DNA of 64,000 nucleotides, taken from Adineta vaga. Taxonomy: Eukaryota > Animalia > Rotifera. Within the stretch, counting starts at the first letter, position 1, and every line of letters starts with the position of its first letter. Under the pieces are notes generated by a model. The model was not told the origin of the DNA, did not search any database, and was given only the letters and a program-made list of their open reading frames with translations. Positions 41,822 to 62,830 of this stretch are shown here, piece by piece. Where the stretch lies: assembly GCA_021613535.1 (NCBI GenBank), contig CP075496.1, positions 2,852,001 to 2,916,000 on the forward strand, written 5' to 3'. The position numbers and the translations under genes were made by a program.

Positions 41822-44800
41822 TTACATCATATTATCTGATGATGTTTGAATTGACTTATGTTGTGCTTCAACTTCTTCTTCATTTATACTTGAATTTTCA
41901 TCATCTTCAGCAATATTTGATAATGTTATATGTGTTATACTTAATTGTTTCATTAGTTGAACGGAATTAGGATTCAAATCATTCGAAAGATTTGCTGTTA
42001 AAATAGGTGCAGAATTTGATGTTGATAAACCTTTTTCTATTGGCATTGTATTTGTTATATTTGGCATGGATGATGTTGTCGTTGTATCATTAAATTCTAT
42101 TGCACTGTCAATTGAACGAACTTTTTTTAGAGTTGAATGAAAATTCTTTTTAAATAAATGGAAATTTTCACGAACTAATGGATTTGTATCACGTGTTATA
42201 GATGATAATAATTCTCCAACAACAAGAACACCTTCATTGAGAAGAAGACTATTTTTAGCTAAATCATCACGTGTTTCATCTAATCGATTCATCATTTCAA
42301 AACGTAACATTTGAATATCTTGTTTAAGTTCTTCAAAATCACCTTCACGAATTTCATCTTGTTCTTCACGTTGTTTATGTAAGAGAAAACGTTTTATAAC
42401 TCGTTCCATCACTTTTCGATAAGTTAATGTTTGACTAAGATCAACTGATTTTCGACGTCCACCATAATGATTATTATTTGTCATATTCGATGTTTGACCG
42501 TTTGGTATAGTTGCAATCGGAGTATTTTTATTTAAATTTCCTTTCGGAACATTTCCTGGTGGACGTTGAATCACTACCGGTACATTATGATGATTATCCG
42601 GTGAACCATTTTGTTCAAGTGGATTGGAAGGAGATTTCTTTTTATAATGACAAATTCGTTGATAAAGTTGAATAAAATTTTCTGGTGTTGGTATGATATT
42701 GAATGGTATAGGTAAGATTCCACCTAGGAAAAATGAGCTTCATTCATTCATGTCCTTTCTTTTTATTTCATATGTAGAAAGAGTAAAAATAAATCTTTCC
42801 TACCTTCTTTAATATATTCCATATAAAGTTTACTTCGAGCAAATTTCCATTCAACATCTGCGTGTTCCTCAATAGTTTCATATGATTTTGACATCATAGC
42901 AATAAGCATATTAAGTAAGACAATAACACTTGCAATATTAAATGCTCCATAGATTAAATAACCAATTAATTCTGTGAAACGATTTTGATATTCTCCTAAT
43001 TTAACTCCATTTTTTTCTGAGAGACCAAATAATGACCAAAAGACAGTTTTAAACGTGGCACCCATTCTAAAATTTGACAATTTTTTATTATTATTATAGT
43101 ATAGAAAACTATGAAGAAACATACGTTCCAAAATATGTTTCGGCAGGTAATTCTGGATCATCTGTACCAAAAATATGTGGCTGAATTTCAACATTTCCAC
43201 GTACATCTTTACTATAATACCAAAATAAATTATTCAAACCAAACATAAATCCACAGAAGATAATAAGAAATATAATGATAAATTTTCCAATATCCTAAAA
43301 AGATAAAATAGAAATAAAATTTCTTTTTCCTTTCCGAATACAGACCGACATCATTCGACCAAGTGAAATTTGTAATGGTCCAAGATGTTGAAATGCTGGT
43401 AAAAGAAAACAAATACGTGAAAAACTAAAAATATTTGCAATAGCAAAGAGTCCTTCAGCAACATTAACAGGATCAAATGGAATCCAAAAGAAACGATCTA
43501 CAATTATTTCAAAACAAATCTTTAAAATTATCCAACAATCATATTTTCACTTACCTGCATTTAACCAATACAATGTTCGATAAATATTTTCTTGATTTTC
43601 TGCTGTTGAATTATATATAGATTCAATACGTAAATCAAATCGATTACTATTCAATATATTAGTAGAATTTTGTACCTAAACAAAAGCAAATATTCGCTTG
43701 AATTAATAATTCATTCAGAGAGAATCGATTCTCCTAAAAGAGAGACCGACTAATCCATTTGCTATTATCCCTCCCGTGCTTGGAAAATAGAAAATCTTAC
43801 TTCATAAAAAACATAATATTTCAATGCAAATGATGATAAATAAAGAATATTCATACATGAATCCACAATATTATTCCATGATAGAAGATAATCTTTTAAA
43901 CCATCTATATAACATTGTTTGATTTCATGCCAAAGAAAACCTAAATAAATGATGAAAACATTATTAATCTTTTCATTTTAATTTCTATAGAATATTTTTT
44001 ACCAAGAATAAAGATCGATATTGTAATATCAATCCATGTTGGACTATGATGTCGAAAATAGAAATCATTATTTCGTGGAAAATAATAACATGCACTTGAA
44101 TTATAAATTTCACAAAAATTTCTTGCTTGAATAAATGATTCGACAATTTTCGGATAATTTGCACTTAATCTTATCATTGGTTTCTGAAATTCATTTGCAA
44201 ATAATAAACTCGATAAGATTATCAAAATAATAAAGATGCCATAAGATATTGTATGACCAAGAAATTTAATACAAGGTTGTTTAAGAAATTTCTGTAACTA
44301 AGATTAGAAACAAAAAGAATCAAAATCAAATTTGTTTTTTTTTGTTCAAAGAAAAGATTTCATTCGTACTTTAATCGTTCGTTGAGTTGATGATGATATT
44401 ATATAACATATACAAACAAATGGTAATGTAAATATATAACCAAAAATTAATAAGAAGATAATTAAAGGATTCAATTTGAATATATTACGAATATCACCAT
44501 GCCAAATTTCAACTAATTTCTGTTGACAATTCGAATGAGCAACAAACTAAACGAGAAATGAATATGTGTGTTTATTATTTTTATCAAAATAATTCTATCT
44601 ACCGGTTTTTCTTCATATTTTATTGCAAGATAAAGTCGTGCTAATAGAACATATTTTTCTTCTGTTTCTTTTCCTGTTTTTCCTAAAACACAATCGAGTT
44701 CTTTATGACCACGAACTTTATCTAATAATTTCACAGCATATGCACTTAATTGATCTGCTAAATTGATATATTCATTCTAAATATAATTCATAAGAAGAAG

Positions 44801-45823
44801 AAAAAAACAAAAGAGAAAAACTAAGAATTTTACTTTGAAATATTTTTCTTTTCCAGATAAATCTCTCAATTCATGACCAAGTTCAAATGCTGTTAGAATT
44901 GGATCAATCGATGCTAAACTAATATAACTTTCACTTGCTAAACCACGATAAGCATTTAAACGTGATTGAGCATGACGTAAAGAATCAAATTTAAATTTAT
45001 TATGACATTCTTGACATTTACAATGATAATCATGTGGTTTTGTTATTCGATCACCATCACGTAATAATAATTGAACTAGAAAAGACTAACTTTCATTGGA
45101 AGTACAATATCAGATAGTTCAATTACCGATTTCAGTTCGATTGTATTGTGATGCTAGAATTAATGGTGTTATATCAGGTGCAAATTGTGCATCATCCGAT
45201 GATGGTGTTTGCCAAAAAGCATCATCTTTGAAGATTTTTTTTTCATTTAAATTCTTAAATTTTGGATGTCGTAAACAAGCTTCAGCAATTTGAATATGTC
45301 CAAGATAGATTGCTAATAATAATGCTTCACGCATTTTTTGACCATCACACTGTGCTAAGAGAAGTGTAACAACCTGGGTAATAAAGTAAACAAATAAATA
45401 TATATATATATGGAAAGAAGTCAAGTATTTTTATACTTCGAGGTGTTCATTTTCAATAGCTAATCGCATTGATGTTCGACCTAATTGATCAGTAACATCA
45501 ATATTAAATTTGGGATTTTCTTCAAGTATTCGATTCACTGTATTATAATCTCCATTTTCACATGCATGTACAAATTGTTCGTTGATATTGATTTCCTAAC
45601 AAAAAAAAGCAAAAGACAATTTAATCACTTAGAAAAATCTCATTTAATTTACGCCATTTTTAGCACCATTATTATAAATTTGTTTATATAAACTAGTTCT
45701 TCCACCAGTAAAATTCACTCCACGATTCCCACCACCACCACGTCTACGCATATTAGCTTGTGAACGAGCACTAAAGCGTCTTGCTTGCACAGTAGCTAAA
45801 GCACCACTACTCATTGTAGACAT
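41822..45823 (-). CDS. TRPC-family cation channel
   Basis: Ankyrin repeats, [39 protein letters not shown], pore [20 protein letters not shown] box EWKFARSKL and a C-terminal coiled coil. Confidence 0.96.
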
Positions 45824-47079
45824 TTTAGCTTCACTGTTTCATCAAATGACGTAGGCTTTAAGTTAATATTGATCTAAAACTAGCGGAAATGTGTTAGATG
45901 AACATTTTTTTAACATTTTTCTTTCAGATTCTTTTTTCTACCGTTTCTCTTTCTTGATGAAAAAAAAACGTTACACAATTACCAGTTAGATCTTGTCTTC
46001 AATATCCAAATAAAAGTCATACTTCCAAGTATCTTACCTATAATAAACCTAGAATAATCAAGATTGAGGAAAGAAAAGCGATTGATCATTCCAAGATTCA
46101 AACCGTCAAAGACAATAAACAGACGTTCATTGAATGTTCTGGTGTATATGCAGAGAGGAGGTATGCACTCGAACTCTCTCAGAGTGAATATGTGAATGAT
46201 GAAGAGTTTTCTTTTTATATAGACGAAGAAAAGATCAAAGATCGTTCAAGCAAGCATAAGAATAGATATGGAATAATGTTTTTCTGTTTCTTCTCGTGGA
46301 TTAAAAAAAGAAAATTGGTGCATGTTAGAAAAGATGAAGGAGGAAAAGAGTAAAATTTATTCTAGATGAAAGAAGATAAGAACAATACATGACGTGATCA
46401 TGTGCTATATTGGAAAAATTGAACACACTAAGAGAACGGATGGAGAAAAATGATAAATGATCTTTTTACAAGAACGTGTCATTCAGTAACGATGTAAAAT
46501 GACAAAATGAAGGTGTTTCGACAATAACAACAAAATAGAAATGACAGTTCGATGATAAATGTTTTTTTTAGTTGAAGTCTTTTTCTGGATATATATATAT
46601 ATATATATGAAAAGAATCGAATATGAGCATTGATTGATATGTATTTTAAATCGAAATATAAGAAAGTTGAATTCTTCAACAGTAAATCGAACACAATTGA
46701 TGTTAGTATAAGTTTCATTTACTTTGTATTCAGCATTTTCCTGGTTCTAGTGAGAAGAGGAAACGAGAAATTTCTTGTTTCTTTTAGCTTTTATTTTATT
46801 AATAAAATATGTCATCTATCAAATATGTTAGAATATTAATGAACATGATTTTCTACACAAAATATATATTAATATTTTCGCAGAAAGAATCTTTCATATT
46901 TTATCAAGATTTAGAATATCATGTCTGCATAGATAAACTTTCGATTATATTGAAATTAAATAATCGCTAGTGTCCAATTGTCTACGAAGGAGGACAAATA
47001 GACAGATACATATGTCGATGAAAAGAACAGAAAGAAAAGGTCTATCTATAGCTATCATTCATTTAAACAATTAATCGAA

Positions 47080-50487: not shown

Positions 50488-52588
50488 TCAAAAAATATTC
50501 AAAATAATTTCGTCATCGTTTGATGAATTCAGATCTTGTTGTACATAAATAGAATGAGATGTTTCCATTTTATCATCAGAAATACTATTTAATGGAATAG
50601 TCTTATCAATCATTTGAGTATCTACTACAATGGGTTCGTTAATTTCTTCTGTTGAATCATTTTTTATTCCTTGTTGATCATTATTATCAACATAACCAAT
50701 AATGAAATGAATTCGAGCATCACCATCTTGCTGTAGTTCATCTGCTTCTTGTAATGACGAATGCGATGTATCAGGACTTGCGGATAAGTGACTTGTATTC
50801 ATTGCATTCTCTTTTGCTCGTGCATCTGGATCTTCAATTTTAGAAGTACGACGACGTCCAGACATATAACGACAATCTCTCGATTCGAAATCAGTATTTT
50901 CATCATCGGAAAAATCACTAAAATCAATTTGTTCTTCTTGAAAATATAATTTTCGTACAAAAACACGTTGATAACGATCGACAAGAACAGAAACTAGCAT
51001 ACCAATTGTTGCTGCACCAAATAATGCACAAAGACAAGCAATAATTCGGCCAACTGGTGTCATCGGTGTTATCTCACCATATCTATTAGAAATATTTTTT
51101 CAAATAAATTAATAGATTTCGAAATCTTACCCAACACTAGTGATTGTAATAATTCCCCAATAAGTTGCCTTAAGAATCGAATCAAATGCAGCACTATTCG
51201 AATCATTTTCAGCATAATATGCAGCTGAACCAAAAAGAAATCCAAGTAATGTTAAAATAATAATCATAATAAGAAAATCTAACAATGATTGTCGAACAGT
51301 TGTTGCTAATACACGTAAAGATTTGACACTTTTAAATACTCGACAAAATTTAAAAACACGTGCTAAACGAAGTATACGTAGAAGTCGAAGACCAATATAC
51401 GTATTAGAATTCACTTCATCTTCTCGGCCAGATAAACGAATTATTAATGATACGTAGAATGGTACAACTGCTAAGAAATCAATCCAATTCATGATACTCT
51501 TAGTGAAATCAAGTAATGATGGTGTGGAAAATAAGCGAATAACAAGTTCTAATGTAAAATATCCCACACAAATAACTTGAATAATGAAAAATGGTGAAGC
51601 ATAATACCAGTGACAAATATATAAATCCGATGGTGAACTTGGAGTTGTGGTTTGATTTGAATTAGATGATGTTGTTGTTGAATCTGATTGTGTACAATCA
51701 AAATCATCTAAATCAGCATATTGCGGTAAAGATTCAACTGCTAAAGTCATTGTTGATATAAGTACCATTAATAATGAGAATATATTGACCACTTTAGCTA
51801 AACATGAATAATCAGGATATTCCATTGTTGCCCATATCCATCGTCGTACACGATTTTTTGGTAAACGTACTTTTCTAACTTCTTTAACATTTTCATCTTT
51901 TCGTATTTGATTAAGTGCTTCTTGTCCTAATTGAAAAAATGTCACTTCTTCAAGAAATATATCCAATGGAATATAATCCGGTCGTCTTAAACGACCATTC
52001 GATTGATAATAATAAAGTATGGCTTGAAAACAACCACGATGACGATCAAAAAAGTATTCTTTCTGACTATCATCATAATAATATTTTCGTCGTTTAGCAT
52101 TACCCAATAATGTCTCAGGATATAATTCTAGTGTTGTTCGATGTGTTTCATATCGATCACCTGAAACATTAATTATAATACGATCATTTACTGGAGATGT
52201 TGGTCTATCTCGTTGTTTTTGAGATTGAACGGAAGTTAGTCGAAGTAAATTTTTGATATTAATTACATCACTAATAAAAACAAGATTTATTAGAAAAAGG
52301 TTAGTTTATTCTTAAATATAGATTATTTAGATATATGAATATGTTAGAATAGAAAAAACTTACGCATCATTTTGAGTAGGATTCCATTGAGTAGTTTTCT
52401 TCGAAGGCGCATCTCTTCAGAAATAAATCGAAGAAATAAGTTTCAAAACACAAAAACGAATTGCATATTTTTATTTACTGAAATACTGTTTCTAAATGAC
52501 GTGCTTCTGTTCGAGATAATTGTTTCGTAACAGTTCGTGATCGTGATGTTCGATGAGGTGTTTTTGGTACTCCTTCCAAATTTAACAT
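50488..52588 (-). CDS. Shaker (Kv1)-family channel subunit, divergent, copy 1
   Basis: T1 domain (RIIINVSGDRYET, EYFFDRHR, ILYYYQSNGRLRRP), S1-S6, S4 RLLRILRLARVFK, filter TSVG|YGE. Confidence 0.93.
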
Positions 52589-53150
52589 TGCGCGTACCTA
52601 TATTTATAAACATATGAACTTTTATATTGTCTCTCTTATGAATTTATTAAAAGTATCATAAAATATTCACTTTATTCATTAGATAAGAATTTAAATAGCC
52701 GTTGTAGAAGTTTATAGCTCTACTGAGATTTTATCGAAAGACGGCGATATAAAATATCCGATTTTTATTGTATGAGATTTCCTGCTGTGAAGGTAAGAGA
52801 TATTTTCGTTTGATATGTAAAGATTTATAAATAAATTATTTCTATTAAATCAATATTATTCTCTTTCGTAATCGATAGTTTTCGACATCATGCCTCGCAC
52901 GCTAGGAATCTCAGATTGAAAAAGATGTACTCTTCAATCAAATTTTCGTTAAACGAAACGAAAAGAAAAAGTGACTGATAAAATTTTGAATGACGCAAAA
53001 AAAACGATGTTTTTCTTTGTTTTAACTTATTACAATCTTTCGTTATCATTCTAAACATTTCTCGGCGTTCTTTATCATTTCATTTTCTTTTTGTCTTAGT
53101 TTTATATAATAATATTTTTCATATTTTATACATAACGACCTCAATAAACA

Positions 53151-54032
53151 ATGTTTAGTAATCTTTCTCAAAAGATATACGTCTTATTATTTCTATTTCT
53201 TTGTTCAATTCAATTAAATCAATCACTTCGCTGTTATGAATGTTTGGATTGTGAGGATATAACATGTAACTGTACGAATATCATCGAAACTGATAGCAAA
53301 ACTTCATTTTGTACTCTCGTTCGAGAAAATACTCCAAGTGGATTTAATGTCGAAATACGACATTTACCACGAAATTTATCAACTCATTATGAATCCAATC
53401 CATATTATATATCTGTGAAAGAAGAAATTAGATATAATGCATCGATTGATCAATGGTTATCATCTGCAAATACAATTGCATTTGCATGTCAAACAGATGA
53501 ATGTAATCGACCTGATTTATTGAAAGAATTACCAGTGAATGGTCTATCCTTAATGTTACCATCGAATTGGTTGAATGAAAACCTTCGACGAAAATCACAT
53601 GGACAAACAAGTTCATGTTATAATTGTCCTGAAGACGAAATATGTACTCAAACAATATATAAACCTGATTTAAACAAATGTGAATTAGAACAATGTAAAG
53701 GTATTTGTATTCTCAGTCAAACAATGGGAAAAAGTCAATCAAATCAATATTGTTATGAATCATATTGTGTATATCCAGAAAATCCTAAACCTGAAATACT
53801 AATTTATGGTATTTATTATATCGACAATCAAATATTTGATTTGATTGAAAGTGATGTTAGCTGTGCTGGACCTAATTGTAGTCGTTTAGAAATCTTTCAA
53901 GATATTAAAGATAAATTACAAAAAAATTATAATAATATTAAACCATTTCTTCCATCGAACAATGTTAAATCCTTATCTATATCATCGATTGTTATATTTA
54001 TGATGATAATCTTCCAGATTATTTTCTACTAG
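53151..54032 (+). CDS. Intronless Cys-rich secreted protein with two Ly6/uPAR-like domains and a probable GPI signal
   Basis: Signal peptide, LRCYEC start, CQTDECN end, second domain SCYNC...CAGPNCS and a terminal hydrophobic tail. Confidence 0.75.
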   Translation: MFSNLSQKIYVLLFLFLCSIQLNQSLRCYECLDCEDITCNCTNIIETDSKTSFCTLVRENTPSGFNVEIRHLPRNLSTHYESNPYYISVKEEIRYNASIDQWLSSANTIAFACQTDECNRPDLLKELPVNGLSLMLPSNWLNENLRRKSHGQTSSCYNCPEDEICTQTIYKPDLNKCELEQCKGICILSQTMGKSQSNQYCYESYCVYPENPKPEILIYGIYYIDNQIFDLIESDVSCAGPNCSRLEIFQDIKDKLQKNYNNIKPFLPSNNVKSLSISSIVIFMMIIFQIIFY

Positions 54033-55103
54033 AAATTAATTACTGATAGTAATAAAAAAACGAAAGAACTCACTCGAAAGTTTGCACTTTTTTATTTGTA
54101 TGTAAATTCGTTAGAATGAAAAAGTACGAAATGAAAACTTACTTATATAGACGGTTGCTTTTCGTCTTTTTTTTCGTTTATTGACCTCAAAGTATTCAGC
54201 AAACAAAATAATCTCAAACTTTTCATTAACATCAGAATGTCACTTGGACATGGACAGAAAAAACGGACATTCAACAATAAATACTTTTAACGAAGTTCTT
54301 AGTAACTTCATTGTACTAAATAGATCAATTTATATTCGAAAAAAATCAAGCGATTTATACATAGAAATGATAATCAATGTATATTTTTTGTAAAATTGGA
54401 GTTTGCTCTGTATAACAGACATATCATATCATATGTCCTCAATATCGCCATGATTTTCTTGTTGAATAAACAAGACTTCTACATCGTTCTGTATTTTAAT
54501 TTCAATCTTAATTTTTATTTCCTTATCAAATTAAAATTACTAAAAATATTATTGTTTATAATAAACATTAGTATTTGCAAACTAGACATATCATTATTTG
54601 TTGTGCTTCCAAAAATGTATTGTGTATTTTATTTTGCAGACGAAGATATTCTTTCGAATATGAGAAATCTATGGTTTTATATTGGATTGTTTACTTTAAC
54701 TGGCTGCAAATAGTAACCAGGTACACTCTCTTTATATGCATGCAATACGAATAGTTGTACCTAAAAATGATTATTCGAGTTCAACAACGAAGTGTCGGGG
54801 AAATGGATTATGTTTTTTTTTATTAATATTGAGATGTTCTTTTCAATCTATTTGTTGATACTTTCTGTTTTGAAATGAAGAGAGAATGAAAACTTAATTA
54901 AGTTTTTTTTTGTCTTCAAAGAGAAGCTTTACAATAGTTATTTAATTTGATGTATGTTTACAATACTTGATAAAAATGAAATTCTCATGAGTTAAAACAT
55001 TTAATTCATCATGATTTCTATTTCTATTGAAGTTTTGAAGAAGAAAAAAAGAACCTCAAAATAGATTTGCTTGTTTTTGTATTTAAAAAATGAAATCACA
55101 GAA

Positions 55104-57598
55104 CTATTCCAAGTCAGTTTGTAGAATTTCCAACGTTCGATCGATTAATCCTTTGCCAGCACAATTTTGTTTCAAACGAAGATTTTCTAATAATGGTTTA
55201 TATTCACATAATTGTTCATTTGTCAAGAAATTTTCTAAAAATTTCACAATTATTTCATTTGAAATAAAAACCTTTAAATCTTTACTTTGTCTTTTAATTA
55301 AATGAATTAATTGAAGAATATTATTGATTATTTCGGAATGTTCAATATCTTGTTTCAAGAATTCTTTTAGATTTTCATGACAATTTGCATCTTGAAGTTT
55401 TCCACAAATAAATGCTAAAATGAAGAAATAAATCTTTATGATTTGCTTTTTTTTCTTTATCTATTAAACATACGATTAGCTAACATCATGATGATATTCA
55501 ATGCAATCAATGCTTCATTTTGAATAATTCCACGATTTGTTTGAACTTCACATGAAGCTAATGTTGAAGTTATCAATGGAAATGCATCATTTCGTGCTAA
55601 TGCTTCAATAACTTCAATGGTTTTCAATGCAACTGGTAAAAGAAATATTACACGACGAGATTCAACTAAAAGTTCATTTACAAAAAAAACACAAACGAAT
55701 ATAAGATCGATCTATTTTGATTGAGAAGAAAACTTACATTGTAAACCTGGATGCATTGAATTACTATTAAGTACAATTTGTTGTAAAATCGAATCATTTA
55801 TAATTGCAATTTTTGACGCTTCTTTGGCATCACGAAGAAGAAAACGAATGACACCAGTTGCTAAAATAGAATTCAAATTTTCAAAAATCATCTGATCAAT
55901 GATTTACCTTTATAAGCAATTTCACCATTAAAATTCTTTGTAAACAAATATGGAGTAACATTATCCAGGACATTACTATCGACTAATAATGGTCGATTCG
56001 TACCTGAAAAAAATGTCAATCAAAATCAAATCTAATTCAATTGAAACTAGTTTACTTGGTACGGCAAGATTTCTTAATGCACCTAAAATTCCATGTGCAA
56101 CTTTTGATTGTTCATCAGTCATTAATTCTAATTTGTTTTCTAATTGATTTGAAAAATCCTTTAATTGTTCAACTAATTTTACATCAGGTTTTCGTTTGTC
56201 TGCTAAAAGACTAATAGCTGATTGATCATTTCGTGTTAAATTTGTAATAATTAATGCACCGGTCATTTTTAATTGTAAATTTGATTTTTCTAACCATGAT
56301 ATTCCATAGTCAAGTAGATCATATTTCTTTGAAGTTAATAATTGATCAATAGATTTATCTAAATAAAGAAATATGAACATTTTCTTTTTTTTTAGCAAAA
56401 GAATACAAAAAACAATGAGAACAAACCTGTTGTAATCAGAACTACAAGTATATAACATGTTTCACGAACAAATTCTTCATCTTTCCCAACATATTCTTCA
56501 CATAAATTGATCAGTTTGTAATAGAATAATGATGAACATAATTCTTCTTTAACACCATCTAGAAAATAGAAGACAATAAAGATTAGTTTTCAGATCAATA
56601 AGATTATTTTAACAACCTTCTTCACATGCTTCAAGTAAGTAAGGTAAAATCACCGCACGATTTTCATAAATAGCCGATTCTGTTATATGATTACCAATTT
56701 CTACCAATAAATGACTGGCAATAAGTCGTTCACAATCTAACAAGAAAGATGAATTCGTCTGAAATCAAAATCATATCTATCAAATTTGTTATACTTGTAT
56801 CATAATCAATTAAATTCGAACTGATTGAAAATAAAAAGAGAAGAATTTTCGATTCCGATAAATATGGAATGTAAAGAAGAAATATTTTCAATAAATCTTC
56901 TTTCAATATTAATTCAGCAACTTTTTCTAAAGATAAAAATTGAAAATAAATTCATTCGAATTCAATATATTTACCATTTGAATTTATAATATTATGTAAT
57001 GCACCTAAGATTATCATTCGTAATTGAATATTATCATGCTTTTCACATGCATATCGACATATATCAAATAGAATGTTAATACCAATTTGATTCGATACTA
57101 ATTCACAACCGTCAGCTGAAAGAAAAAGAGAAAAATAATAGATTATATTGAAAATACAAATTCTTGATTAAACCATTTTCATAACACATATTTCCGATTG
57201 CACGACATGATTCGATTTTTTCTTGAATATTATCAGATTGTAGACAATCTTTCAATGGAGAGATGAAATCTAATGTGACACATTCTTGTCGAACGGATTC
57301 TTAAAAGAAAAGAAAACAAATTCAAATTCAATTCAATTGATTTCTTTCATTTTAATATACCTTCTTTACAAATTTCAGCTAAAAGTCGAATAACTTTATG
57401 ACGATAGATTAGATTTTGTTGAAGTAAACTTTTTAAAACAGTTCTATCGATTTCAGATATCAACGATTGTTTTTCATCATCTACATGGAAAAGTAAAAAC
57501 ATGTTTATAAATTCAAAATTTCTCATACTTGATGATGCTTGACTTTGATGTTCAGTGACCTTTTTAAGAAATATTTCTATATCATTTTCTGTATACAT
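55104..57598 (-). CDS. RAP1GDS1: RAP1GDS1/SmgGDS armadillo-repeat GEF
   Basis: RLLAEICKE, ESCRAIGNMCYEN, GALIITNLTRND, HGILGALRNLAVP and IIQNEALIAL. Confidence 0.85.
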
Positions 57599-58542
57599 AG
57601 TTACGTTGAACGAAATATAATAGAAGGAAGAAATATCATGTTAAAAGAGAATTCTGTTATTGGTGGAATGCTTTCCATCAATCAATATCCAACGCCACAT
57701 ATTTCTCTTCGTATTCTTTTTTCGATTTTGACATGAAATAAAAGTTAATATGACGCTTTCTAGGATCATCAAATGATTTTACATCAAGTAATTTGATATT
57801 ATTTACAGCAGTGTCGAACTTGAAAGTTCAATATAGAATCTGATATTTTAAGTAAAACTAAAAATGATTTAGTAAGTCCATCAGTAAATAAAGTACTGTG
57901 ATTAGTAACTATCGTTTCACATTCAAGTCAAAGAAAATCAACGTAGACGATGTTACTATTAACTTATTTATATGATAAGCGCTCTAAACCAATTTGATAT
58001 CTATAGATGTTAATATCTGTTCTACTTATATTAAGATATAAACTTGATATAGATATATCGATGTCTTTTCATAAAATTTTTCGTTAAAATAAATCAGAGA
58101 AGAATCATTACTTTTGCTATTGTTTACTGAATGAAAGGAAATCGAATTCCACGAACATTGCTTGAAGTCATCAGTATAGTAATCGAATATCCTAGATGCA
58201 CCAATGATGAGCACTGTCTTAACAAAACTGTCATCATCTATATATTATAAATCTTATACTTCATGACACATGTTCATAGACTGATAACACACAAATTTTT
58301 CTATTAGTACATCGAAACAATATATGTTCTGCTTATGTGCTTATGCGTGATTGGCTTAAATATTTTTATATTATAGATCGTGTTATTTCGATAAACTTTC
58401 AATAAACAATTATCACACGTTCATTTATGATAACATTTAAAATCAATGATTATAGTATACGGTCGAATGACGATGTATCTCTTTCTCTTTTCTTTCTTTT
58501 TCATATGAAGATTAATGACTGTTCGTATACATAAAGGTTAAC

Positions 58543-60504
58543 ATGACAAAGTTCAGGTACAAGTAATTGTCAGGTTATTTATTTGATAAAAATAGAAAGA
58601 TTTCATTTCTTATTTAGTATTCGAACATTCTATAAAAATCCAAAATGGACTGGTCAAACAGCGACGGAGTAATAAAGAAAAATTCATGGGCCATATCAGA
58701 TTATTTTCCCTAATTTTAGACTTGAACATTTGCAAAGTTTAATTGATTTACGTCGACGTCGAAGTGAAGATCATACAAATTTGAAAAGTCGAAGAAAACG
58801 TAATGGCCAAGTTACTTCTCGAATTGTTATTAATGTTGGTGGTTTACGTTTTGAAACATTAAAATCAACACTTGAACGTTATCCTCAAACATTACTTGGT
58901 AATAAACGTCGTCGATCCTTCTTCTATGATGAAAATCATGATGAATATTTTTTCGATCGTCATCGTTCATGTTTCGAAGCAATTCTCTATTTTTATCAAT
59001 CACATGGACGTCTTCGTCGACCAGAAAATATACCATTAGATATATTCTTAGAAGAAATCAATTATTTCGATCTCGGTTCGGATGCACTTCAACAAGTTCG
59101 AAAAGATGAAGATTTAGAAGAAGTAAAAAAAGTTCAATTACCACACAATCGATTCTGTCGTCATCTATGGGCAAATTTAGAATATCCACAATATTCAATG
59201 ACAGCAAAAATTATCAATATATTTTCAATGATTTTTATATCAATATCTGCAATTGAACTTGCTCTTGAAACATTACCAAAGTATCGACTTACTTATAATA
59301 GTCAATGTGAACAAGAAGGAGATGGTATTGAAAGAATTTAAAACTCATCGATTTATCTTATTCGAGTGAGATAAGAATAGACCATTTCGCCTAAATAGAA
59401 AATACTCTCATTATCATTTAGTACTAAAGCATTTTTTTCTAGGTTTATTAATTGATAATAACAATACATCAACTCCACATCTTTGCCCACCAAATTTCTA
59501 TTCACCATTCTTCATTATTCAATCTATTTGTATTGCTTTTTTTACAATCGAATTTCTTCTACGTTTAATATCTTGTCCATCATATTTGAACTTTATTCGA
59601 TCACTTCTTAATTGGATCGATTTACTTGCTATTAGTAAATATTATTCATTATGAATAAATCAATTGTATTCTTTTTCGAATTTTAGTTCCTTACTATGTA
59701 ATATTAACAATCAATCTACTCGGTTTTCATCGAGAAATTTCACCTAAAACGTATTTTTTGCTGAGTCTTTTACGCATATTTCGTTTCATGCGTGTATTTA
59801 AACTTTATCGAATATTTCAACATGTGAAATCATTACGTGTACTTGCCTGTACGTTGAAAGAATCCATACCGGATTTTATCATATTATTATCATTTTTAAC
59901 CATAAGTGGTTTTTTATTTGGTGCAGCAATTTATTTTGCTGAAAATGAGGTGAATGAAAATGTTTATGATTCCATACCAAAAGCAACTTATTATGCAATA
60001 ATAACATTGACAGCAGTCGGGTAAATATATTTACTAAATTATAATGTACTTCTCCGATAGAAGTTATCTTTTTTGCTTTTTAGATATGGTGATCTAACTC
60101 CTATAACTCCACTTGGACGAGGTCTAGCATGTTTAGGTTCTATTTATGGTATATCAATTGTCTCAATGCTTGTTTCAGTTCTTGTTGATGGTTATCAACG
60201 AGTTTATTCACGAAAACGTTTTCTCAGAGAAGATTATGCAGACAATATCATCTTTATTGATTCATCTCTACATTCAAATAATACTGGAGAATGTCTAGAA
60301 AGTCAAATGGATATTAATAAACAATTTCATGGTGTTAAAGAAGAAGATGATCAATTGCAAGAGAAAGACATCAGTGATCATGTATCAGGAAAAGTTCGTT
60401 TTATTCTTGGTTATGTATCTGACGATGACATTGATAATGATTCGGATACAAATAATAACAAAGAATATGCATGTAATCAAGAAACTACAAAATCAATACT
60501 TTGA
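58543..60504 (+). CDS. Shaker-family channel subunit, divergent, copy 2
   Basis: RIVINVGGLRFET T1 domain, S4 SLLRIFRFMRVFK, filter TAVG|YGD; two short 5' exons inferred. Confidence 0.93.
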
Positions 60505-60907
60505 ATAAAAGACAGATTATCTGTTATCATAAATTTTTCTGCAATTTTTTTTCTATTCTGTGTTTAAAATCGATTAACTTAATGTAAAATATGACCTACA
60601 GTTAGTACTTAAAGTAGATATGATAAACAACACGTATTCTATTCTATTTTTGTATTTAAAACATTTAAAAGTCAAATGTCATTGCAAACAAAAATATTTG
60701 CTAATAGTTTATTACTGAATTCCATTTGATTAAAATAAAGTCTCAAATGTTAAAAGACCGACAGTGATATTTTTTATATCATTGTTTTTTCTTTTTCTTT
60801 ACTCATTCATATGAAATAGAGATAATTGAATAGAACATTCTTTCTCTCTCTCTCTCCCTCTTTCCTTCCGTCTGAATAAACAATGGAATGAAATGAATTA
60901 AATTTCA

Positions 60908-62830
60908 ATGTCTAATACTCAAAATATTTGCAAGAAACGCAAATGGACAGGTCGAACTACTTCTGGGTATCAATAGAGATATCTTTTATCTATAATTAAA
61001 TAATAATTTGTTTTCATAATTAAAGATTAGAACATATTCAAAGTATAATCGATCTTCGTCGTCATCAAGGTCTTGCATTTGCTAATCGATTATCATCGAC
61101 TCAAAGTCGAGATGATAGTAAACATGTCGATTCTCGTATTTTACTCAATATAAGTGGTTTACGTTTTGAAACATTAGAATCAACACTTGAACGTTATCCT
61201 CAAACATTACTCGGTGATAATCGTCGGCGATCTTTATTCTATGATAAAAAACATGATGAATATTTTTTCGATCGTCATCGTTTATGTTTCGAAGCAATTC
61301 TCTATTTTTATCAATCACATGGACGTCTTCGTCGACCAGAAAATGTTCCATTGGATACATTTCTAGAAGAGATAACCTTCTTTGATTTAGGTTCAGATGC
61401 ACTTCAACAAGTTCAACATGCAGAAAATTTAGAAGAAGCACAAGTTATTCATTTGCCAAAAAATCCTATTCGCCGCTTTATTTGGACAACATTAGAATAT
61501 CCTCAGTATTCTTTCTCAGCAAAGATTGTGAATATTGTTTCTTTATTTTTCATTCTTTTATCAGCTGTAGGTTTAGCTGTTGAAACTTTACCTACTTATC
61601 ATCGGGCAACAAATGATCAATGTCAATATGAAGCTGATGGTAATGTAATTCTCGATGATTTTTCGTTTCGATAATGTTTCTGTTTATTTACAGGTATATT
61701 AGTGAATATGAATATGACAGTACGAGATGGTCGATGTCCTCATATATTTAATTCGCCATTTTATATCATTCAAGCAAAATGTATTGCTTTTTTTACATTA
61801 GAATTTCTTCTTCGTCTTGCAACTTGTCCATCATATCTGAAATTTTTTAAATCCATATTAAATTGGATTGATTTAGTTGCCATCGGTAAATATATTTATT
61901 CGTTACAATTTTTTGAAGTTTATATATTTTTCTCTTTCTCTTATTAGTTCCATTTTATATTCGATCAACCATTATTCTTGTTCGAGTTCATTATCATACC
62001 AATTCAAATGTTTATCTCGTTTTACGTCTTCTTAGTATTATACGTTTTATTCGAATATTTAAACTCTATCGTGTTTTTAAAAGTATTAAATCATTACGTG
62101 TACTTGCGAGTACATTGAAGGAATCTTTACCGGATTTCGTTATTATTCTTACATTTCTTTCATTAAGTGGATTTTTATTTGGTGCAGCGTTTTATTTTAC
62201 TGAAAATTCCATGAATGAAGATATGTTTGATTCAATACCTAAAGCAACTTATTATGGAATAATGACAATTACAGCTGTCGGGTAAGATATTAAATGAAAA
62301 ACTCATCGAATATATTGAATTCTTCGCATAGGTATGGTGATCTATCTCCAGTAACACCATTAGGACGTGCATTAGCATCTCTATGTGCCATTTTTGGCAT
62401 ATCTGTTGTATCAATGCTGGTATCAGTACTTGCTGAACGGTATCAACGAGTTTATACACGAAAATTATTTTTGAATGAGAAATATTCGGATAATTTCGTT
62501 TTTCAAGATGATGAAAATCAGACTACTCCATTACCATCATCGACAAAAGGTAATCTATATCAACATCAAATATCTGATAATGTTAAACAAAGGGAAACGA
62601 ATTCAACTGTGGATGATAATTTTACATTTAAAGGAATTACAGATGATGATGATATAGATGGAAGCAATGAATCGGAAAATTCAAATGAAAAAATTCAATT
62701 GATTATTGATTTTATTTCGAATGATTCAATGGAAAATAATGAATTAATAATAACTGATGCTATTAAAGAACTTTTTCGAACGAAATTTGGAAAAGAATGT
62801 GTAGTTACTCGAACAGATTTTATTATGTAA
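60908..62830 (+). CDS. Shaker-family channel subunit, divergent, copy 3 (tandem paralog of copy 2)
   Basis: RILLNISGLRFET, S4 RLLSIIRFIRIFK, filter TAVG|YGD; core intron positions match copy 2. Confidence 0.93.

Follow-up and report, generated by a model that had tools for sequence, protein, structure and literature searches.

Silent or regulatory subunits of voltage-gated potassium (Kv) channels have been described from vertebrates, cnidarians, ctenophores, and choanoflagellates; rotifers are unmentioned in the main text of the survey concerned, whose supplements may hold rotifer sequences (10.1101/2025.09.21.677649). Unusual substitutions in the S6 gate, the PVP motif, occurred in 42 of 43 verified regulatory subunits, with Ser or Thr as the commonest replacement at position 3 (44%), whereas a control set carried Pro at positions 1 and 3 in 100% of cases; these substitutions were regarded as a marker of regulatory subunits and not as the cause of their behavior (PMC6279357). 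Gate degeneration is reportedly absent from Kv α-subunits (PMC9989356). Among the closest described systems are the cnidarian Kv1 regulatory subunits, represented by Nematostella NvShakR1–14 (PMC3519636, PMC6279357, PMC9989356), several of which shift the activation of heteromers to negative voltages and slow their deactivation (PMC3519636). Lophotrochozoan expansions of Shaker were noted in the same paper as functionally unexamined. Here, we analyzed a 64,000-nucleotide stretch of the bdelloid rotifer Adineta vaga (the window; contig CP075496.1, positions 2,852,001 to 2,916,000), which contains three Shaker-family genes, referred to as A, B, and C, all with intact frames. They belong to a bdelloid clade of Kv1-type proteins without gate prolines, which is real and apparently undescribed; no paper on these genes was found in full-text searches, in the part of the matches that was inspected and with most subscription papers outside the coverage.

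The bdelloid clade resembles the NvShakR proteins in its Kv1 subfamily, its altered S6 gate, and its expanded, fast-evolving paralogues standing beside canonical α-subunits. It differs in having arisen independently, within a protostome lineage, and in having lost both prolines in all members, whereas 88% of the regulatory subunits known so far still have the first one (PMC6279357). The bdelloid gate is also re-fixed, with the valines at gate positions 2 and 6 retained, the S6 end reads DRYQRV for SNFNYF, and the S4–S5 linker, Trp434 (W434Y), and filter position 442 are altered too. Vertebrate Kv6, Kv8, and Kv9 and Nematostella ShawR likewise have a hydroxyl residue in place of the second gate proline (Ser or Thr in eight of nine Kv6–9 proteins and Ser in all NvShawR; PMC6279357). 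These are, however, Kv2 and Kv3 subunits with a zinc-site T1 domain, a motif that is missing from the T1 of the bdelloid proteins, and Kv6–9 keep the first proline and mostly carry an aromatic residue at position 6.

A protein search with the main exon of gene A as query returned a 100% match and two neighbors under the A. vaga source name (P0001, P0090, and P0110), and exon structures were obtained by fitting these proteins to the DNA. Gene A, encoding a divergent Kv1-type subunit of 631 amino acids, occupies 52588..50488 of the minus strand in four exons (52588-52479, 52414-52364, 52270-51131, and 51082-50488; fitted to P0001). Gene B, encoding a divergent Kv1-type subunit of 538 amino acids, lies at 58543..60504 of the plus strand in six exons (58543-58556, 58618-58668, 58720-59324, 59443-59634, 59687-60020, and 60084-60504; fitted to P0090). 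Gene C, a tandem paralogue of gene B encoding a divergent Kv1-type subunit of 565 amino acids, follows at 60908..62830 of the plus strand in five exons (60908-60966, 61026-61639, 61694-61885, 61948-62281, and 62332-62830; fitted to P0110). The spliced frames were identical to the three annotated proteins, all 12 introns were of the GT..AG type with lengths of 48–118 nt, and neither a stop nor a frameshift occurred, which bore out the original prediction of intact reading frames. A phase-2 intron inside the first filter glycine interrupts the filter motif in all three genes, and gene A has no intron between T1 and the filter.

The proposed Kv1-type identity was supported by domains, solved relatives, the T1 sequence, and the phylogeny described below. 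BTB_2 (T1) and Ion_trans scored above the Pfam cut-off in all three proteins. The closest solved structures were Kv1.3, Kv1.2, and Shaker (expect values (E) from 7e-85, for Kv1.3, to 2e-73), far ahead of Kv4, Kv3, and Kv2 (Kv4.3, 4e-40; Kv2.1, 2e-32), and a structure model of gene B (mean predicted local distance difference test score (pLDDT) of 68, core mostly 70–90) matched Kv1.2-2.1 and Kv1.3 best. The His/Cys/Cys-Cys zinc motif seen in the T1 domains of the Kv3 and Kv4 rows was absent from genes A–C; absence of the Kv2–4 T1 zinc site is a published criterion for Kv1 (10.1101/2024.12.09.627618). Residues are numbered hereafter by Drosophila Shaker (P0484), to which the motifs of the three proteins align without gaps; all six motifs quoted in the original prediction were present, in register with it.

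All 48 species-named proteins among the best 120 matches came from bdelloids (Adineta, Rotaria, and Didymodactylos), as did the six that carried a species name among ten further clusters, and the remaining full-length matches outside the clade were at most 41% identical in an unindexed search. No non-bdelloid member occurred among the matches found, which does not by itself establish absence from monogononts, and an Atlas search with gene A returned generic Kv clusters only. The lineage-specific expansion proposed for the locus was therefore supported in that the clade is expanded and lineage-restricted, but it is bdelloid-wide rather than local. Quick trees recovered the clade as a single, fully supported group on a very long stem, and two of them, built without Kv2 rows, placed it on the Kv1 side of the branch against Kv3 and Kv4 (Shimodaira–Hasegawa-like approximate likelihood ratio test (SH-aLRT), 97). 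In topology tests on 30 of 52 rows (22 long-branch or redundant rows were left out), forcing the clade together with bdelloid canonical Kv1 gave an approximately unbiased (AU) p of 0.049, and with all rotifer canonical Kv1 an AU p of 0.073; holding the clade and rotifer canonical Kv1 together cost 15–18 log-likelihood units. The suggested phylogeny thus set the clade apart from Kv3 and Kv4 and gave it no firm position within Kv1, an origin from rotifer canonical Kv1 being neither established nor firmly rejected by these tests.

We then compared the S6 gates. The segment corresponding to PVPVIV (Shaker 473–478) reads LVSVLV in gene A (50980..50997, minus strand) and gene B (60169..60186, plus strand) and LVSVLA in gene C (62417..62434, plus strand). 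Among 447 pore-plus-S6 segments from the collected proteins, 64 were clade members, a count that includes near-identical alleles; a gate proline was found in none of the 64 and Ser475 in all, so that the loss of the PVP gate noted at the locus extends across the clade. Five other proline-free windows were rejected as out-of-register or mis-spliced models. The clade-wide pattern was LVS(V/I)LV, and in 40 clade proteins the conserved gate residues were L473 (38), V474 (33), S475 (40), and V478 (38). Similar fixation was found at the S6 end (D479, 37; R480, 36; Y481, Q482, and R483, 40 each; V484, 37) and in the S4–S5 linker (R383, 39; E391, 38; D395, 40), and the hinge Gly466 and Glu418 were kept in all 40. 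Mean entropy was 0.46 bit at positions 473–478 and 0.37 bit at 479–485 versus 1.51 bit in the upper S6. Altogether, 26 positions were fixed differently in the clade and in canonical Kv1, including P473L, P475S, S479D, N480R, Y483R, F484V, Q383R, A391E, E283Q, R371K, and W434Y. Judged from this conservation, the gate, S6 end, and S4–S5 linker are jointly re-fixed as a new consensus and not decayed. The view of the altered gate as a regulatory-subunit marker therefore holds insofar as the replacements of the first proline by Leu and of the second by Ser are non-conservative, but the gate is not degenerate. In the gene B model, S6 formed one helix as assigned by DSSP; the canonical control was of low confidence there and helical through its prolines too, and S6 geometry from monomer models was accordingly set aside as uninformative.

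Next, we focused on the selectivity filter and pore helix. The filter core VGYG, Thr439, Thr441, and Tyr445 are retained in all three proteins. Trp434 is replaced by Tyr in each, Trp435 by Tyr in genes B and C only, and the residue at position 442 (Thr in Shaker) is Ser in gene A (51136..51138, minus strand) and Ala in gene B (60013..60015, plus strand) and gene C (62274..62276, plus strand). GYG was present in 40/40 clade proteins and Tyr434 in 39/40, and among the five regions compared for constraint, the P-loop ranked first (entropy, 0.62). Position 442 was occupied by Ser (27), Thr (17), Gly (11), or Ala (9) in the 64 clade proteins and by no other residue; at least five changes at this position were counted on a tree of 38 clade proteins, and Thr442 was kept together with the same proline-free gate in seven of 40. 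The reported change at Asp447 is real in gene A, which has Glu, but is found in no other gene of the window, in 2/40 clade proteins, and not in the A. ricciae orthologue, which has Asp; D447E was therefore rejected as a clade trait. Thr was also seen at filter position 443 (TGYGD) in four Didymodactylos proteins (P0070, P0076, P0079, and P0082) and one from Rotaria (P0117).

The substitutions engineered in Shaker T442S and T442G, Kv2.1 T377A, Kv3.1 T400A, and KcsA T75A occur naturally across the clade, where, unlike in the mutants, they are combined with a proline-free gate and a W434Y pore helix and have persisted through bdelloid evolution. In Shaker, T442S and T442G are functional and close 100–1000-fold more slowly, Cys, Asp, His, Val, and Tyr at this position are not functional, and T442S changed the Rb/NH4/K conductance order (PMC2233792); the T442S effect amounts to approximately 0.5 kcal/mol per subunit and is proportional to the number of mutant subunits (PMC2229424). 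Replacement of Thr by Ala in Kv2.1 and Kv3.1 shifted activation by −58 and −86 mV, respectively, removed inactivation, and lowered conductance, with Na/K ratios of 0.010–0.015 (PMC7231921). By analogy, the filter changes of the clade are predicted to alter gating and inactivation and not K+ selectivity. A changed ion selectivity as the main effect was unsupported, because the Thr-to-Ala mutants keep K+/Na+ selectivity, and the "rewired" filter originally described is an overstatement for a filter in which positions 434 and 442 (and 435 in B and C) are altered while GYG is intact.

The S4 charges were largely kept in 40 clade proteins (R362, 36; R365, 38; R368, 38; K371, 39; R374, 33), with Ser at position 362 in gene C, and Phe290, Glu293, and Asp316 were retained; Glu283 was replaced by Gln in all 37 clade proteins aligned there, so that the sensor charges are preserved with fixed E283Q and R371K. 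A canonical rotifer Shaker, proposed as the partner for co-expression, exists in A. vaga as P0431 and P0439, which were retrieved with an exon of metagenome locus L006 together with proteins of other named bdelloids and Brachionus Shaker. An A/T-biased normal-gate pattern matched 54 metagenome loci, among which 12 shared a single short-intron type, and it was through these that the named bdelloid canonical Kv1 proteins were reached. The idea that bdelloids lack a canonical Shaker was thereby rejected; a canonical bryozoan-type Kv1 query had placed no named rotifer in the best 120 of 6728 matches, which reflects saturation and not absence. In the bdelloid canonical proteins, the pore helix and filter are of the standard kind, and the PVPVIV gate and terminal ETDV are present. 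The clade's T1-S1-S6 architecture and fold are also those of canonical Shaker, Kv1.2, Kv1.3, and the two A. vaga proteins, which share with it the S4 charges, Phe290/Glu293/Asp316, Glu418, GYG, and Gly466; the clade differs from them at the 26 fixed positions, in the pore, and in the C-terminal ETDV, which was found in 0/40 clade proteins versus 6/6 canonical bdelloid Kv1 listed.

In the T1 domain, the clade was 55–59% identical to canonical A. vaga Kv1 (Kv3/Kv4, 40–42%), whereas in the pore the pattern was reversed, with identity of approximately 35% (Kv3/Kv4, 48–58%). At the modelled T1 interface, 19–21 of 30 residues were as in the canonical subunit. A modelled 3:1 T1 ring of canonical and gene B subunits scored 0.91 versus 0.01 for the best of three controls, with at least 94% contact agreement between runs and a partner pLDDT of at least 89; the mark set for this score was reached by 51 of 78 solved pairs and 2 of 108 mismatched pairs. 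For a textbook pair such as this, the score is a modelled measure of shape compatibility and of likeness to solved Kv1 T1 rings, and not proof of binding or of choice among relatives. Regulatory subunits have no consistent T1 sequence signature in the set described (PMC6279357). Two recurrent motifs flank the conserved core of the clade: I-x-S/N-L/I-I-D/N-L-R before T1, and V-R/H-F-I-I/L-G-Y in the C-terminal tail, which diverges in other respects, of several members (residues 556–566 of gene A, 503–513 of gene B, and the tail of gene C among them). The pore intron of the clade splits the first filter glycine, whereas in the short-intron canonical Kv1 loci the break apparently falls two codons upstream, ahead of the filter valine; nothing in the intron positions points to a recent duplication of the canonical gene.

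Expression and selection were evaluated from sequencing runs and orthologue comparisons. Runs X1–X6 are called RNA-like by a guess from their splice joints, none of the runs listed being on record as RNA. All five introns of gene B were seen as GT..AG joints in such runs, its pore intron in four runs from three studies, and two of the four introns of gene C were joined in the same manner in contigs of low depth, all from a single study. Zero splice joints were seen for both genes in run X8, whose contigs extend over introns and intergenic DNA. For gene A, RNA-like contigs cover parts of exons and one ends at 51082, an exon edge, and no splice joint of this gene was among the joints listed (nine further joints lie outside the list). 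Contigs at 59270, 62421, and 62461 of the window match briefly and then continue into dissimilar sequence. RNA-like runs and run X8 alike contain the loose ends at 59270 and 62461, a pattern suggestive of additional related copies at other places in the genome. Orthologue pairs of the clade were 71–100% identical per core region versus 34–54% in the tail, and those of canonical Kv1 were 95–100% and 64–67% identical, respectively. On these comparisons, the clade is constrained yet evolving faster than canonical Kv1, which fits the rate expected of regulatory subunits. Moreover, 91 core positions were at least 90% fixed in the clade and common to canonical Kv1. The suggested ratio of nonsynonymous to synonymous substitution (dN/dS) was below 1 between the paralogues (0.28–0.45 by the Nei–Gojobori method, NG86), a rough figure because of saturation and AT bias. 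Among the allelic differences listed, 3/3 in T1–S6 and 9/19 outside were synonymous, too few for a selection test.

Taken together, we consider it most likely, with a probability of roughly 0.6, that genes A, B, and C encode obligate heteromeric modifier (silent/regulatory) subunits that co-assemble through T1 with the canonical rotifer Shaker. This reading follows from the combination of an available canonical partner, a preserved Kv1 T1 domain, and the loss of a gate whose loss silences Shaker: P475S homomers have a half-activation voltage (V50) of +195 mV (PMC2229584), and P473A, P473W, and P475A are non-conducting (PMC2233862), so that homomers of the clade are predicted, by analogy with these single mutants, to be silent. 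Four proline-free S6 helices would not be openable at physiological voltages, and a single one among three canonical subunits would be tolerated. The filter Ser, Ala, or Gly and S479D would bias such heteromers to opening at more negative voltages, with slower closing, weaker slow inactivation, and K+ selectivity retained, and paralogues with Thr, Ser, Gly, or Ala at position 442 would tune a single canonical Shaker to a graded series of currents.

Several observations weigh against this reading. Fourteen of the 26 fixed differences lie in the S4–S5 linker or S6 end, and among sites fixed in both groups, 14 of 18 differ there versus 12 of 99 elsewhere (Fisher p 4e-8), which gives the look of a rebuilt coupling interface rather than of relaxed selection. 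These two elements couple the voltage sensor to the gate. Fixation of the new gate is close to that of an α-subunit gate, and the pore-sealing Val474 and Val478 are retained (33/40 and 38/40), whereas Val at gate position 6 is kept in just 12% of known regulatory subunits (PMC6279357). S479D, present in 37/40, moves Shaker activation to −58 mV (PMC2233862, PMC2229584), corresponding to approximately −6.7 kcal/mol versus +8.1 kcal/mol for P475S on a crude zFV50 scale from published single Boltzmann fits, for which additivity is not assured. W434Y makes slow inactivation faster in both Shaker and Kv1.2 (PMC7266152) and thus opposes the predicted loss of inactivation, making the net effect uncertain. 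In T1, Leu106, Gln111, Asn145, Pro147, Asp150, and Val172, near-invariant in canonical Kv1, are altered in most clade members, which could mean a separate assembly group. A less likely alternative is that the clade forms a channel subfamily of its own, self-sufficient as homomers or as mixtures confined to clade members. Bending at Gly466 and a rebuilt contact of the linker (R383, E391, and D395) with the S6 end (D479, R480, and R483) would then replace the proline hinge, and S479D together with Ser, Gly, or Ala in the filter would offset P475S, giving a slowly closing, weakly inactivating K+ current. The joint re-fixation of gate and linker/S6 end with Val474, Val478, and Gly466 (40/40) retained, and the energies of S479D and P475S, similar in size and opposite in direction, are in line with it, as are the functional, slowly closing T442S and T442G mutants (PMC2233792), the approximately 0.5 kcal/mol per T442S subunit (PMC2229424), the −58/−86 mV shifts of the Thr-to-Ala mutants (PMC7231921), hERG gating without a proline motif (PMC3440756), and the topology costs (AU p 0.049 and 0.073), by which an old independent lineage is possible. 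It is opposed by the reported lack of gate degeneration in α-subunits (PMC9989356), the abolition of conduction by P473A/W (PMC2233862), for which an offset in the case of P473L is not known, and the seven proteins with Thr442 on a proline-free gate, in which a filter change is evidently not needed as compensation. The energies, taken from single Boltzmann fits, are not necessarily additive, and T1 has diverged from canonical Kv1 far less than the pore has.

It is improbable that the subunits join canonical Kv1 chiefly to act in a dominant-negative or trafficking capacity, suppressing, retaining, or relocating it, or that they sense voltage without conducting, with few conducting heteromers. 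Such a role would agree with the two gate changes, either of which silences homomers of Shaker, with W434Y, with the lost ETDV tail, and with the lowering of total current by co-expressed silent subunits (10.1101/2025.09.21.677649); conservation of GYG (40/40), Thr439, Tyr445, Glu418, and Gly466, the strong constraint on the P-loop, and the restriction of position 442 to residues that conduct in mutants (Thr, Ser, Gly, and Ala) speak against it. Finally, that the genes are decaying, unexpressed duplicates with neutral substitutions is scarcely credible and already largely refuted. The faster evolution of the clade core, the missing splice joint of gene A, and the low depth of the gene C joints could be read in this manner, but the frames are intact, genes B and C are spliced, orthologues persist in three genera with cores far more conserved than tails, and the fixed core positions and the rough paralogue dN/dS indicate constraint. 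Unexpressed and neutrally evolving genes, one of the two conditions under which the original prediction was to fall, agree poorly with the conserved filter and the expression data.

If the modifier reading is correct, silent subunits have arisen independently once more, this time within Kv1 of a protostome, and the clade puts to the test the published claim of gate changes as predictors of a regulatory phenotype. A self-sufficient clade, if true, would be the first conducting channel without these prolines among Shaker-family members and would offer natural suppressors of Shaker-silencing mutations. Either way, P475S, S479D, W434Y, and T442S/G/A, known mainly as laboratory mutants, form a conserved natural set, which makes it testable whether a rebuilt linker–S6 contact can replace the PVP hinge and in what way closing and inactivation depend on the inner residue of the filter.

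Three other genes were observed in the window. Head-to-head with gene A, at 53151-54029 of the plus strand, lies a single exon for a cysteine-rich protein of 293 amino acids with hydrophobic ends, which gave no Pfam match and in the Atlas matched rotifer clusters (0.92–0.94) and, weakly (0.83–0.84), three-finger/Ly6 families including quiver. Quiver/Sleepless regulates Shaker in flies, and a link to this protein is a lead only. At 41822-46353 of the minus strand, a multi-exon gene matched Ion_trans (E 5e-5), with motifs that we take to be TRPC-like. Between genes A and B, at 54939-57480 of the minus strand, lies a further multi-exon gene, two exons of which gave no Pfam match; it is well spliced, with 11 distinct introns joined.

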